UHGV virus genome: UHGV-1834803
From: a virus
Strand: one strand, 5' to 3'
Length of the DNA: 42,379 bases
Below the pieces are notes generated by a model. The model was not told where the DNA came from. It saw only the letters and a program-made list of their open reading frames with translations, and searched no databases. Positions 21,246 to 42,379 of this stretch are shown piece after piece; within the stretch, counting starts at the first letter, position 1; each line of letters starts with the position of its first letter. The translations under genes and the position numbers were made by a program.

Positions 21246-21347
21246 GTATGCTGTCAGCGGTAATTGATAGTCTGTCAGCGGTTCACCGTATGCTGCCAAC
21301 TGTTTTTGGTATTCTGTCAGCGGCAAATCAAGTATGCTGTCAGCGGT
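21246..21347. repeat. upstream iteron cluster (about 5 copies of TATGCTGTCAGCGGT and variants)
   Basis: Direct repeats read at 21247, 21268, 21289, 21311, 21333. Confidence 0.6.
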
Positions 21348-21367
21348 TGAATGACAAAGGTGTCCAC

Positions 21368-22462
21368 ATGTCCACAAAAAATAAAAAAGGTAAAAATAAC
21401 AAAGAAGTAGAAGATAACATCGACAACTTTGAAGAAGGTTCCCTTGAATTGTACACAGGGGAACTTGTCCCTAATAGCAACAATACAGTCCAACCAATTG
21501 CGTTGATGCGACTGGGGTTGTTCGTCCCCACGCTTAAGGGAACAAAATACAGTAAACGTAACAAGCCAAATGAGATCGATGCTTCAAAGGAGCTTGTCCA
21601 GCTCGAAGTAGCCCGTTCTGAAGGCTATTCCGATATCAAGATAACCGGTCCTCGCCTGGACATGGATCATGATTTCAAAACGTGGGTGGGCGTTGTGCGT
21701 TCGCTGGCAGAATACGGCGAACCTAATGGTCGTGTCGAGTTAAGCATCACGAAATTTGCGAAGTTTTGTGGCTATCCATCGTCACAGATCCGCAAAACAC
21801 TCCGCGACCGGCTTACAAACAGTCTTTTGAAGATCATGCGTACAACTCTGTCTTTCCAGAGAACGTATGAAGAAAAGAACGTCGACGGCTCTAACAAGAT
21901 CTCGCTTCTGATGGTGCACCTCATCAATAGCGTGGACTACAACGAGCAGAAAGATACGGTGGTGTTCTATGCAGAACCGAAGCTGGCCGAACTATATCGC
22001 TTTGACCATAAGGTTCTTTTGCAGTTAAAGGTTATCAATAAGCTACCACGCAAAGAAACAGCACAGGCTCTGTACACCTTCATCGAAAGTCTTCCAACCA
22101 AGCCTGCGCCGGTATCGCTTGCTCGATTGCGTGCGCGACTCAATTTGAGTAGCAGGAATGTCAGCTCGCAGAATCAGACTATACGTAACGGCTTAAAAGC
22201 TCTCCAAGATTTGGGCTATCTCGAATACAGCGAGATTAAGCGTGGGCGGTCGATCTATATCCAGATTCACAGCCGCAATCCAAAACTCAAAGTCGCACCG
22301 CCAAAACCTGAAGACATCGAACCCAAAAAACCAGATGAGAAAGCCGGGGAAATTGATGCCAAACAGAACATTATCAATAAGATAACCGAACTTTCGCAGA
22401 ATTTGACGCCTGAAAATATCAAGATGATTGAGATCCTTTCCAATAGTCTCAAACTGCTTTGA
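21368..22462 (+). CDS. replication initiator protein (Rep, iteron-binding type)
   Basis: Only large plus-strand gene; flanked both sides by iterons; start taken at MSTKNKKGK (21368) rather than the track's 21248. Confidence 0.6.
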   Translation: MSTKNKKGKNNKEVEDNIDNFEEGSLELYTGELVPNSNNTVQPIALMRLGLFVPTLKGTKYSKRNKPNEIDASKELVQLEVARSEGYSDIKITGPRLDMDHDFKTWVGVVRSLAEYGEPNGRVELSITKFAKFCGYPSSQIRKTLRDRLTNSLLKIMRTTLSFQRTYEEKNVDGSNKISLLMVHLINSVDYNEQKDTVVFYAEPKLAELYRFDHKVLLQLKVINKLPRKETAQALYTFIESLPTKPAPVSLARLRARLNLSSRNVSSQNQTIRNGLKALQDLGYLEYSEIKRGRSIYIQIHSRNPKLKVAPPKPEDIEPKKPDEKAGEIDAKQNIINKITELSQNLTPENIKMIEILSNSLKLL

Positions 22463-39472: not shown

Positions 39473-39646
39473 TGTTACCTCATAGAATTGATATGCAACT
39501 TTACTCACAAAGAAGATAGGTATGTGCATACTTATCTTTGCAGTCTGCATTATAAAGTTATTAAAGCCTCGATCAATCTATTAATTAAGGCATTGTTTGG
39601 TTAACATTACCCTAATATTTTATAGTTAGTAGAGTGAAATACATAC

Positions 39647-40909
39647 ATGCCTTTTTTAATTTTCATTATTATACTACTGCTCACCGTGATTTTTTGGGAT
39701 TGGGTTGTTTTAAATGGTCAAATTGTTGGAACATTGGCTACAGCATTTGCTTTTATAGCAACAGCATGGAATGCCTACGAAGCGAGAAAAAGTGCAAAAG
39801 CAGCTTTTTCAGCCCTTCAATTAACAACAGAATCATTGTTCGAAATGCGAAAGAGTGCATTTAAACAATGGTTTGATTCCTTATTAAATCAACATGATGA
39901 GCTATGTCTTCTTGCAAAACAAATTATCGATAAACGCAAAATTAATTTAAACAGCGATGAGTTACATAGACTATATTACCCATTGGTAAAACAGCATGAG
40001 GTAATACAGTATGTGAAGCATATTATTAATATTTTTGAGTATGTGGATAGTTCATTTTATATTGATGGGGAATGTCTAAAGGAAAAAAGAGCGTATGTGT
40101 CACAATTAATTTTCAAAATCCCACCTCAGATGAAGTTGATCATTGCTATCTTTGGATTAAAGATCGATTATTGTGAACATATTAATTCGGGAAAACTGTG
40201 TTGTTTATTAAATAAATATGATTTTTTCAATGATGAAATATTTTTTGATGATGCTTATTCAGATATGCCTTATCTGGATGCATTCATAAACCTTAGATTC
40301 AACAAAATATTCAAATCTCGAATGATAAATTATTTTGATAATATCATTAAAAGTTATTATGTTCCATCGGACGTTAAAAGGGACTGGATGTTTCGAGACC
40401 CAAAGCTCGTACCGTCGGTTCTTATGAATTATAAAACTCCTTGTTCTCCTATAATTAATGATTACTTTGAGAAGTTGCCTTTACATGTAAGAAACTACTT
40501 TGAGGAACTACTTAAAACCGCGAATGATAGAGTTACTCATTTTGACGTTTACATCCCACGCCTTATTGGTTGTTCAATCGTGCAACATTACGAAGATGTG
40601 CCTTCCGAAAAAAACAGGTTAAATGACAGGAATGATGTAATAGCTATGGCTGAAGATTACATCGAGAAAAGAAAATCTAATCAACTAGATTACATACTTG
40701 AAGATATATACTTCAAGAGTGACGAAGATATAATCCCAGGCCACCATTTGATTGTGGCATTTGATGACTATGAATTTAAATTATCACTCATTAAGATAAA
40801 TGAGAATAAAGATAGCGATAATCTTTTAAATCGAATTTATACTGAATCCAGTAGCATGGTTAAAGAATATAAGCGCGAAATATTAAAACTGGGCGACTAT
40901 GTAAAGTAA
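39647..40909 (+). CDS. AT-rich membrane-anchored protein of unknown function
   Basis: N-terminal hydrophobic helices then ~370-aa soluble domain; AT-rich, Asn/Lys/Ile/Tyr-rich composition unlike neighbours. Confidence 0.5.
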   Translation: MPFLIFIIILLLTVIFWDWVVLNGQIVGTLATAFAFIATAWNAYEARKSAKAAFSALQLTTESLFEMRKSAFKQWFDSLLNQHDELCLLAKQIIDKRKINLNSDELHRLYYPLVKQHEVIQYVKHIINIFEYVDSSFYIDGECLKEKRAYVSQLIFKIPPQMKLIIAIFGLKIDYCEHINSGKLCCLLNKYDFFNDEIFFDDAYSDMPYLDAFINLRFNKIFKSRMINYFDNIIKSYYVPSDVKRDWMFRDPKLVPSVLMNYKTPCSPIINDYFEKLPLHVRNYFEELLKTANDRVTHFDVYIPRLIGCSIVQHYEDVPSEKNRLNDRNDVIAMAEDYIEKRKSNQLDYILEDIYFKSDEDIIPGHHLIVAFDDYEFKLSLIKINENKDSDNLLNRIYTESSSMVKEYKREILKLGDYVK

Positions 40910-40923
40910 ATTGCACTGTTCAA

Positions 40924-40954
40924 CAAAAAAGGGGCCGAAGCCCCTTTGAATTTT
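40924..40954 (+). terminator. intrinsic terminator (GGGGC-CGAA-GCCCC + T-run)
   Basis: Hairpin and T-run 15 bp after the stop at 40909. Confidence 0.6.
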
Positions 40955-41019
40955 GCGCTGAAAAAAGTGTTGCTAGGATGTTAGCAAGCTATGGTTAAGA
41001 ACGTCTGCCGTAATTATCT

Positions 41020-41100
41020 ATCACAGCGTTGAGCGGTCTGGTTTATGTTAGCGGAGTCTTAATCGAGTTGATTAAAAGGCCAAACCGCTCAACGCTGTGT
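41020..41100 (-). other. long-stem hairpin immediately 3' of tRNA-Ser
   Basis: ~20-bp near-perfect inverted repeat (CACAGCGTTGAGCGGTCTGG / CCAAACCGCTCAACGCTGTG) around a ~40-nt loop. Confidence 0.35.
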
Positions 41101-41101
41101 C

Positions 41102-41188
41102 TGGCGGAGAGTAATGGAATCGAACCATCATCGTTTGCACAATGGGACGGTTTTCAAGACCGCTTGAGCACCATGCTCCCTACTCTCC
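41102..41188 (-). tRNA. tRNA-Ser (anticodon UGA), type II, encoded CCA
   Basis: Hand-folded: acceptor GGAGAGT/ACTCTCC, anticodon loop CTTGAAA, long variable arm, T-loop TTCGATT. Confidence 0.7.
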
Positions 41189-41287
41189 AGCTATTGTGAT
41201 GGTCGGTGCTGAACTCCGACACAGGGTTGTAGCAAGCCCCGCAAAGCGCGCACTACTGTAGTTGCGGCACATCAGCCTGTGCATTCA

Positions 41288-41367
41288 TCACAATGGTAAG
41301 ATCACTACCTTTCGACCAGTCATTGTGCACATGAACGACGATTAACCGTAATGATATTATCGTTGTG
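41288..41367 (-). ncRNA. long-stem hairpin element A (candidate small stable RNA)
   Basis: ~16-bp stem (CACAATGGTAAGATCA / TGATATTATCGTTGTG, with wobbles); paralogous to element B. Confidence 0.3.
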
Positions 41368-41417
41368 TTGTGAAGCCAGATGCTTATCTTCTGGTTGCTT
41401 CAAAGAGCTGCACTTCC

Positions 41418-41507
41418 TCACAACGGTAAGAGCACTGGTCTGACTCTATCGATTTACGGCCTTGTGGGTCAGTATCGCCGATTCGCCCAATGCTCTTACC
41501 TGTTGTG
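41418..41507 (-). ncRNA. long-stem hairpin element B (candidate small stable RNA), abutting the tRNA-Thr 3' end
   Basis: ~16-bp stem (CACAACGGTAAGAGCA / TGCTCTTACCTGTTGTG) around a ~55-nt interior. Confidence 0.3.
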
Positions 41508-41508
41508 T

Positions 41509-41584
41509 TGGTGCCGGTTAACGGACTTGAACCGCTGGCCATTCGCTTACAAAACGACTGCTCTACCAACTGAGCTAAACCGGC
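41509..41584 (-). tRNA. tRNA-Thr (anticodon UGU), encoded CCA
   Basis: Hand-folded 76-nt cloverleaf: acceptor GCCGGTT/AACCGGC, anticodon loop TTTGTAA, T-loop TTCAAGT. Confidence 0.65.
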
Positions 41585-41588
41585 AATT

Positions 41589-41675
41589 TGGTGGGGAGTG
41601 ATGGAGTCGAACCACCCGAGTCGCCATGACAGTAGATTTACAGTCTACACCGCTACCTCTACGGACTAACTCCCC
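41589..41675 (-). tRNA. tRNA-Tyr (anticodon GUA), type II, encoded CCA
   Basis: Acceptor GGGGAGT/ACTCCCC, anticodon stem-loop GTAGA-CTGTAAA-TCTAC, long variable arm. Confidence 0.75.
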
Positions 41676-41680
41676 TAAAT

Positions 41681-41755
41681 TGGCGATGGTGGGTGGATTC
41701 GAACCACCGACCAGTTGGTTAACAGCCAACTGCTCTACCGCTGAGCTACACCATC
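41681..41755 (-). tRNA. tRNA-Asn (anticodon GUU), encoded CCA
   Basis: Acceptor GATGGTG/CACCATC, anticodon stem-loop GTTGG-CTGTTAA-CCAAC, T-loop TTCGAAT. Confidence 0.75.
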
Positions 41756-42072
41756 AATTCAGCACTGCCAGTATTTATTACTCAACAGTGCCAATCGCGA
41801 CGGTTTAGTTTCTGCCAGGAAACGCACCGCTACTTGCACTTTTCGTTAGTGCCAGACGCTTTCGACTTCGCTCAATAGTAGAAGGGGGAACCGCAGAATT
41901 CGGAAAAAATCGTACGCTAAGCTAACGGTGTTCTCGTGACAGCTCTTTGACTAGGCTTTCTAAGGCCATTCTGATAGCCCTGACTTCCTGAAAAGCCATG
42001 GCTAAAATTTGTGCGGCTAAAAGGGATAACCGATGGTAAAGTAAGTTATCCCTGTCGAGATACTGAAAAGCG

Positions 42073-42379
42073 TTATCCTCGTTTTTCCCAAAACTGTTTT
42101 GCCAGTTCGCTCAGAGCGCTAGTTAACTGAGCGACAGATTTCGCACTTTGCAAATTATTCTGCCCGGTCTGTACATTGGTATCAGCAGCATCGCGTATAT
42201 TGATAATACTGCGGTTTATGTCTTCACTTACTGCTCCCTGCTGCTCGACCGCAGTCGCTATTTGCGCGTTCATGTCGGTAATTTCGTTAACGCGTTGGCC
42301 AATTCCATCAAGAGCTGTAGCTGCGGCACTGTTGCAAATAGTCGGTGGTGATAAACTTATCATCCCCTTTTGCTGATGG
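42073..42379 (-). CDS. partial ORF with MCP signalling-domain-like C-terminus (N-terminus beyond window)
   Basis: VNEITDMNAQIATAVEQQGAVSEDINRSIINIRDAADTN resembles the conserved C-terminal part of methyl-accepting chemotaxis proteins. Confidence 0.4.
   Translation of the reverse strand, partial: HQQKGMISLSPPTICNSAAATALDGIGQRVNEITDMNAQIATAVEQQGAVSEDINRSIINIRDAADTNVQTGQNNLQSAKSVAQLTSALSELAKQFWEKRG

Follow-up and report, generated by a model that had tools for sequence, protein, structure and literature searches.

Here, we analysed a gene of the UHGV virus genome UHGV-1834803, a stretch of 42,379 nucleotides that we call the window. The window is an SSU5-like phage-plasmid of Escherichia coli, in which the gene, encoding a protein of 420 amino acids (aa), forms an AT-rich cassette between the glutaredoxin gene grxA and a phage-borne tRNA array. 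We propose that the gene probably codes for a factor of the AbiC/AbiP superfamily that is anchored in the inner membrane and brings about abortive infection or phage exclusion as a single protein, and that the gene is carried as exchangeable lysogenic-conversion cargo, a function that we infer from remote homology and context. More tentatively, and a little short of calling it probable, we put forward a wider hypothesis: SSU5-like phage-plasmids of Enterobacteriaceae would keep a dedicated anti-phage slot between grxA and the tRNA array, with cassettes swapped by recombination, the main defensive lineage of which would be an unrecognised Gram-negative AbiC/AbiP branch with a conserved effector, composed of the second transmembrane (TM) helix and a juxtamembrane helix, and a rapidly swapped C-terminal sensor. 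An initial annotation, made from the nucleotide sequence alone, had already suspected abortive-infection or exclusion cargo behind the plus-strand open reading frame (ORF), which is present as it was described there; the suspicion is supported, as the gene appears to be a remote AbiC/AbiP homologue.

The connection to AbiC and AbiP runs through a graded series of relatives. In PHROGs, the window protein corresponds to phrog_18168 (E 4.5e-215), for which no function is annotated there. A word-indexed search of 5.8 billion proteins returned only seven clusters, all of them E. coli ‘hypothetical proteins’, and little was gained by a second search of this kind with alignment A2. A hidden Markov model of seven close homologues found 67 of 1.84 billion cluster representatives, 45 of them at E ≤ 1e-10. 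Together with phrog_18168, these representatives, which grade into the Pfam family putAbiC (PF16872), replace the initial picture of an orphan without a family. Matches to PF16872 were obtained for 37 of the 49 full-length family members. The window protein itself misses the gathering threshold of this model (22 bits), relatives from the same slot with 31–33% identity to it reach 18–22 bits, and distant members tested singly all exceed the cut-off (10/10; 25–38 bits). When the close family (A1) was aligned with those ten sequences (A3) in hhalign, a probability of 99.9% (E 4.7e-35) was obtained over 312 columns, spanning the second TM helix to approximately residue 340. The PADLOC models for AbiC and AbiP match seven and four of the 49 members, respectively, in all cases in the central domain. 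Taken as a sequence relationship, the membership of the window protein in the AbiC/AbiP (putAbiC) superfamily is remote but statistically solid, and the protein is apparently a divergent member below the detection limit of the tested Pfam and PADLOC models. A match to the PADLOC model PtuB1 (E 9e-4, residues 30–128) was rejected as spurious, as it lies on a long helix and is seen in only one of the 49 members. Literature on ‘Abi_C’ concerns an unrelated C-terminal HEPN domain of AbiJ and is hence irrelevant.

Employing a putAbiC-positive member as tblastn query, we retrieved the slot genes of about 80 plasmids of 105–116 kb from Klebsiella, Enterobacter, Escherichia, Salmonella and Citrobacter, along with genes of Pantoea and Erwinia that are named ‘putative phage abortive infection protein’ in RefSeq. 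A tblastn search of 50,697 phage records gave no match despite the strong match to phrog_18168; the family thus seems to be missing among deposited phage genomes and to occur in entries catalogued as plasmids. The RefSeq name for the branch of the window protein is ‘hypothetical protein’, and AbiC goes unmentioned in the main text of a study that surveyed 1,227 SSU5-group contigs with DefenseFinder (bioRxiv 10.1101/2025.09.12.675607). The kind of protein is known, namely AbiC/AbiP or Pfam putAbiC, and this branch of it is unrecognised so far. A profile search for related loci with the 15-sequence alignment A4 yielded only three, in Lelliottia, Siccibacter (on a 1.1-Mb contig) and Pantoea, all without SSU5-like neighbours. 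The relatives at these three loci (L009, L010 and L011) are 33–39% identical and AT-rich compared to their surroundings (GC 0.32–0.39 vs 0.46–0.51).

The architecture of the protein was analysed from hydropathy, charge, conservation and a structural model. Hydropathy places hydrophobic segments at approximately residues 1–17 and 24–44, in line with the N-terminal helices seen in the initial annotation. Lysine and arginine are absent from residues 1–44 and occur ten times in residues 45–100, a segment with an isoelectric point (pI) of 9.4. Following the positive-inside rule, we predict a cytoplasmic location for both termini and the remaining ~375 residues, and a loop of about six residues on the periplasmic side. 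The second TM helix is much better conserved than the first and continues into the most conserved segment of the protein, which carries the motif E-A-R-K-S-A-K-A-A ... E-M-R-K ... F-K-Q-W; within residues 23–80, the motif T-A-W-N/A-A-Y-E-A-R-K-S-A-K-A-A is nearly invariant. The invariant residues of helix 32–75 are mostly small (Thr, Ala, Ser), with T39, A43, S49 and A53 forming an invariant stripe, and are grouped on one helical face (p ~0.03 compared to random positions), a clustering that suggests a conserved helix-packing interface. In the central core, Y122, F193 and F194 are invariant in 49/49 family members, and the putAbiC matches of relatives fall at equivalent positions (~122–245). 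Mean identity to the window protein in alignment A4 amounts to 0.59–0.63 for residues 23–80, takes intermediate values for residues 116–200 and falls to 0.16–0.23 for residues 201–420. In alignment A2, the latter reach 0.10–0.16 compared to 0.28–0.42 for the segments 23–80 and 116–200. About two-fifths of the distant family members align only to approximately residues 1–200. We infer that the hypervariable C-terminal half is the specificity or sensor part.

The AlphaFold2 (AF2) model, computed from the 49-sequence alignment, reached a mean local confidence (pLDDT) of 90 and a global template-modelling score (pTM) of 0.78; an earlier model from seven sequences was discarded (pLDDT 60). Helices span residues 2–15, 17–22 and 24–97, the last one being 74 residues long. 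The middle part that follows is purely alpha-helical, and the C-terminal half includes a small beta-sheet. Profile and structure searches had been recommended in the initial annotation, and they differed in yield: profiles provided the link to putAbiC, while Foldseek with the model found nothing at E ≤ 0.001 in PDB and BFVD. Comparison of the sequence profile with PDB likewise gave no credible match.

The gene occupies a polymorphic slot. In BLASTN comparisons with loci L001–L008, backbone homology ends at position 39484, 12 bp upstream of the grxA start codon, and restarts at 40922–40924, just before a hairpin. The flanks are 93–99% identical to relatives, and the interior of the cassette is 67% identical or unalignable. 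The cassette contains a single ORF of meaningful length, and the other alleles are likewise solitary, located between grx or phoH and tRNAs. Identity of the window protein to same-slot alleles of its own family amounts to 53–54% (P0005), 31–35% (P0007), 33% (P0015) and 33% (P0076), and a further allele on plasmid NZ_OZ392465 encodes a protein of 406 aa. In total, at least six alleles with 30–59% mutual identity were found in the same place, all on the plus strand.

Other elements harbour unrelated genes in the slot. One such occupant is an AT-rich family (GC 0.29–0.31) of 302 or 298 aa, two alleles of which are 56% identical. The 302-aa protein has no match in Pfam or PADLOC, and we regard the family as a candidate unrecognised defence gene. 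HEPN identity was considered for this protein but not adopted, as the idea was based only on an RHTIVH motif resembling HEPN Rx4-6H while Pfam and PADLOC were blank. Another occupant is an AbiGi-family gene (Pfam PF10899, 87 bits) together with a 403-aa partner showing only a weak HSDR_N_2 match, and a third is a Gp49 gene (PF13876) on the minus strand. In a census of the 252 integrase-bearing genomes among 5426 complete E. coli genomes, the Gp49 cassette was counted 77 times, the window allele 40 times, and the 302-aa cassette and the AbiGi pair 19 times each; none of the four was found on a chromosome of a complete E. coli genome. Copies of the window allele in the 40 genomes share 90–99.9% nucleotide identity. 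The GC content of all examined plus-strand cassettes lies between 0.29 and 0.34 compared to 0.44–0.46 in the surrounding backbone. The slot hence combines a fixed locus and conserved flanks with alternative unrelated cassettes, one of which is a recognised defence system, as is characteristic of defence hotspots on mobile elements. The AbiGi-family pair and the other AT-rich cassettes of relatives also agree with the initial expectation of a spot where abortive-infection cargo accumulates. We came across no paper in which the region between grxA and tRNA-Ser is described as a defence hotspot.

The substitution pattern gives hints on the history of the alleles. Ratios of non-synonymous to synonymous divergence (dN/dS) of 0.22–0.33 show that the intact ORF is under purifying selection. 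Synonymous divergence (dS) amounts to 1.5–2.2 in the gene compared to 0.02–0.27 in the flanks; for the element bearing P0007, the values are 2.2 in the gene and 0.02–0.25 in the genes for the integrase, the XRE-type regulator and glutaredoxin. Since dS is high in the gene and low in the flanks while dN/dS is low, the alleles appear to be old, to have been kept functional and to have been swapped into near-identical backbones by recombination in the flanks. Read in this way, the allelic diversity points to replacement of the cassette by others from an old pool of AT-rich genes, via recombination in the conserved sequences on either side, and not to explosive evolution in place.

The composition of the gene was described in the initial annotation as AT-rich with a deviating codon style, and a windowed scan of GC content and codon usage clearly distinguished it from its neighbours. 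The ORF has a GC content of 0.320 (0.292 at third codon positions, GC3), and nowhere else in the window does GC fall as low over a stretch of this length (minimum 0.315 at 39581; mean 0.454, standard deviation 0.032). Compared to the 32 other window genes, its z-scores are −5.4 for GC (mean 0.465) and −3.1 for GC3. The distance of its codon usage to the pooled genes is 0.182, while genes of at least 300 aa show 0.094 ± 0.020 (z = +4.5). AT-richness is shared by the family as a whole and by all plus-strand cassettes that we examined in the slot, and is therefore no sign of a very recent single acquisition.

But, how could such a protein protect the cell that carries it? By analogy with AbiC and AbiP, we suggest that the variable C-terminal half, in the cytoplasm, would sense a competitor phage infecting a phage-plasmid-bearing cell by recognising one of its components. 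The block itself might then be executed at or in the inner membrane by the conserved module close to it, either (i) by disturbing the expression or replication of phage genes there, in the way described for AbiC and AbiP, or (ii) by perturbing the membrane through oligomerisation of the conserved helix. The phage-plasmid would benefit as its host cell population would be shielded from competitors. No enzymatic activity is proposed because no polar residue is invariant throughout the family.

Several observations weigh against an AbiC/AbiP-type defence function. The window protein has no Pfam match, with putAbiC absent even at E ≤ 10, and no match to AbiC or AbiP in PADLOC. The models of the lactococcal proteins score weakly on distant members (14–26 bits, central domain only). 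Among 49 sequences, no polar or catalytic residue is invariant family-wide, only hydrophobic or aromatic ones, and polar residues of putAbiC are replaced in this clade, namely the H of ‘LYH’ and the E-H of ‘FDFFEHA’. With a pI of ~6.0, the soluble part is mildly acidic and in this differs from a simple nucleic-acid binder such as AbiP. Furthermore, the commonest identified slot occupant, Gp49, is without a known defence role, a lactococcal AbiC-like protein with 38% identity to AbiC was inactive against the phages tested (PMC11381338), and phage resistance conferred by the window protein or its close relatives is a prediction.

Some of these points would also fit cargo without a role in defence, e.g. 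a factor for phage-plasmid maintenance at the membrane, an addiction toxin or a host-physiology ‘moron’, the likeness to putAbiC then reflecting a shared scaffold only. The function of putAbiC is no more than ‘putative’ and its fold has no assignable activity (PMC13064643), this clade lacks the catalytic-looking His residues that typical members conserve, and the slot also accommodates Gp49 while nearby slots hold YafO toxin genes. Nevertheless, a bona fide AbiGi-family system alternates in the same slot and the cassette contains no partner or antitoxin ORF. In addition, a conserved N-terminal module joined to a hypervariable C-terminal half, with saturated dS on near-identical backbones, is typical of defence-specificity loci. 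We thus consider a non-defence function unlikely.

A defence function could also be exerted without host killing. Superinfection exclusion at the inner membrane, which blocks DNA entry or early steps of related phages as in T4 Imm or P22 SieA, would suit a membrane-anchored, prophage-borne single gene on a temperate element. Deep allelic diversity at a fixed locus would be compatible with specificity against competing phages, and the conserved part of the protein is indeed its membrane-proximal module. However, the predicted topology puts almost the entire protein on the cytoplasmic side and exposes only a loop of about six residues to the periplasm, its sequence homology is to AbiC and AbiP, which act after DNA entry (PMC13064643), and searches of Pfam, PHROGs and PADLOC revealed no resemblance to known Sie families. 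We therefore rate non-abortive exclusion as rather improbable. Decay into a non-functional AT-rich remnant, or a spurious ORF, could be suspected from the extreme AT-richness, the missing direct family match and the lack of a scored plus-strand promoter-like site directly upstream, but is effectively refuted by the conservation data, as full-length ORFs are intact in alleles down to 30% identity with invariant start and motifs, dN/dS is 0.22–0.33, the AF2 model reaches a pLDDT of 90 and the allele is present in 40 complete E. coli genomes at 90–99.9% nucleotide identity.

The phage-plasmid nature of the carrier follows from its matches and its replication genes. The window region is 96–97% identical to Escherichia phages CMS-2020a, Cyrano and PhiR41_1, 97% identical to SSU5-like phage-plasmids and about 80% identical to Salmonella phage SSU5, and dozens of non-mobilizable E. 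coli plasmids of ~110 kb match it as well. It codes for a Rep3-type initiator and also for DnaE, CobS and CobT. The neighbours named in the initial annotation (XRE, tyrosine integrase, glutaredoxin and tRNA cluster) are as stated, with the actual coding sequence (CDS) of glutaredoxin located at 39227..39472 (81 aa). The setting of an integrase beside a tRNA, in the manner of an island, was not sustained: the array is phage-borne and the integrase, present in 252 of the 5426 genomes, was found on plasmids in 254 of 254 places, so that the element is not an integrase-beside-host-tRNA island but a phage-plasmid with its own Rep3 initiator and tRNA array. Neither the integrase nor the cassette had a chromosomal occurrence among these genomes.

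The ORF start is supported by M1-P2, which is invariant across all homologues. No plus-strand promoter-like site was scored directly upstream of the ORF in the pattern scan. The best promoter-like site towards grxA lies in cassette DNA and not in the conserved flank; grxA expression may thus change along with cassette exchange. Downstream, a strong terminator had been attributed to the gene itself. The hairpin exists but sits in the conserved backbone outside the variable cassette. An A-run borders it on one side and a T-rich stretch on the other; in the pattern scan the T-run scores on the minus strand, and the plus strand has a weaker T-rich tail, so that the hairpin looks bidirectional. Directly past the 3' end of tRNA-Ser, on the minus strand, an inverted repeat of 20 nt (41022-41099; 95% complementary, 38-nt loop) may be a terminator or processing hairpin of the tRNA array.

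On the other side of grxA, a perfect palindrome with lox- or dif-like geometry may serve as recombinase site, for multimer resolution or possibly for cassette capture. Homology to the backbones of L002, L003 and L007 stops at 39148, its right edge. The palindrome marks the left border of another variable slot, which lies between integrase and grx and is empty in the window (39148-39246). This second slot contains a YafO-family toxin gene and a 202-aa gene in L002 (4450-5478), L003, L007 and L022, and a 184-aa gene in phage Cyrano (L001 12252-12806).

At the far end of the window, homology to the SSU5-like backbone ends at 41885, and the stretch beyond is matched by more than 5000 plasmids. A terminal inverted repeat of 38 bp (GGGGGAACCGCAGAATTCGGAAAAAATCGTACGCTAAG, 41884-41921), which we take to be of the Tn1721/Tn21 type, is found there, followed by a truncated methyl-accepting-chemotaxis gene fragment (42073..42363, minus strand). 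A Tn3-family transposon thus appears to be inserted just past tRNA-Asn, beside the defence slot. This agrees with an earlier report of transposon insertions near tRNA loci of SSU5-like phage-plasmids.

Table 1 Features of the gene, its slot and the surrounding phage-plasmid. Positions refer to the window unless a locus is named.
Feature	Position	Strand	Remarks
Rep3-type initiator	21248..22462		in window
XRE-type helix-turn-helix gene	37532..37918	+	
Tyrosine recombinase	37913..39016	-	Pfam PF00589; phage-plasmid backbone
Perfect 13-7-13 palindrome, AATGATTCCATAC-ATAGTAG-GTATGGAATCATT	39115..39147	.	~100 bp upstream of tyrosine recombinase gene
GrxA-family glutaredoxin, 81 aa	39227..39472	-	Pfam PF00462 and annotation of near-identical plasmids; conserved left flank of slot
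Variable cassette (gene and 162 bp upstream region)	39485..40923	+	BLASTN vs loci L001-L008
Sigma-70-like promoter facing grxA, TTGATC-16-TATAAT	39549..39576	-	consensus match only; inside cassette-specific DNA
CDS, AbiC/AbiP-like (putAbiC superfamily) protein, 420 aa	39647..40909	+	ATG start
Residues 1-44, two hydrophobic helices predicted to form a membrane hairpin	39647..39778	+	loop 18-23; hydropathy, charge, AF2
Residues 45-80, most conserved segment	39779..39886	+	basic juxtamembrane continuation of second TM helix; invariant columns
Residues 116-200, core	39992..40246	+	aligns to PF16872 (putAbiC) domain of relatives
Residues 201-420, hypervariable C-terminal half	40247..40906	+	helices and small sheet
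GC-rich hairpin terminator, GGGGCC-GAAG-GCCCC core	40928-40947	.	folds at -17.6 kcal/mol (z -2.5)
tRNA array Ser-UGA, Thr-UGU, Tyr-GUA, Asn-GUU	41102..41755	-	conserved right flank of slot
302/298-aa family	L007 11222-12130; L015 610-1518; L016 722-1618		alternative slot occupant
AbiGi pair	L017 2439-4498		plasmid pUTAK-6-1, NZ_CP157149.1

Few abortive-infection genes have been known for as long as AbiC and AbiP, whose mechanism has remained a puzzle since 1992. The locus described here would provide a Gram-negative branch of this group that is tractable in E. coli and was missed by current annotation and by the tested defence models. If our proposal is true, at least six natural alleles on near-isogenic backbones, together with a confident model, constitute a specificity-swap series for studying phage sensing and arrest by AbiC/P. 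Clinical E. coli, Klebsiella, Salmonella and Shigella often carry SSU5-like elements, which also acquire resistance transposons right beside the slot. As a modest practical consequence, defence-system censuses of phage-plasmids probably under-count anti-phage cargo.

How does the window protein compare with the systems it resembles? AbiC has two TM helices and lowers the production of the phage major capsid protein, while AbiP has a single, required TM helix, binds RNA in preference to single-stranded DNA and blocks phage DNA replication as well as the switch from early to late transcription, its toxicity being triggered by the phage major tail protein (PMC13064643). The AbiC/P group is characterised by N-terminal TM helices, a shared soluble domain, single-gene systems and the lack of an assignable fold (PMC13064643), and the window protein shows the same architecture with a predicted N-terminal anchor, a soluble domain and a single-gene cassette. 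Like AbiC (Prf) of Lactococcus lactis and PF16872, it is encoded by a single gene and combines two N-terminal TM helices with an all-alpha soluble domain containing the putAbiC core. AT-richness, location on a mobile replicon and the absence of a solved or assignable fold are further common traits, with homology at the profile level. In contrast to AbiC, it comprises 420 aa compared to 306 positions of the PADLOC AbiC model, is itself detected by neither the Pfam nor the PADLOC AbiC model and has a long variable C-terminal half, and His residues that typical members conserve are missing from its clade. Its host is E. coli and its carrier a phage-plasmid instead of a lactococcal plasmid, and its anti-phage activity is predicted. 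With AbiP of L. lactis, it shares the character of a membrane-anchored single-gene Abi protein, the two types being grouped as ‘AbiC/P’ (PMC13064643), and the PADLOC AbiP model recognises 4/49 family members. It differs from AbiP, with its one TM helix and nucleic-acid-binding domain, by two helices, a soluble part of pI ~6 and the missing AbiP match. AbiG (AbiGi/AbiGii) is a two-gene system without sequence relation to the window protein, but occurs in the same slot, on the same strand and with the same AT-rich composition in related phage-plasmids such as pUTAK-6-1. For the slot as a whole, the closest parallel is given by the defence hotspots of temperate phages and satellites such as those of P2 and P4 (PMC13586616). 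The slot analysed here differs in its carrier, an SSU5-like phage-plasmid, in its position between grxA and a phage tRNA array and in its commonest identified occupant, Gp49, which is no known defence gene. Like these hotspots, it is a fixed locus with conserved backbone flanks, at which unrelated AT-rich cassettes appear to be exchanged by flank recombination.

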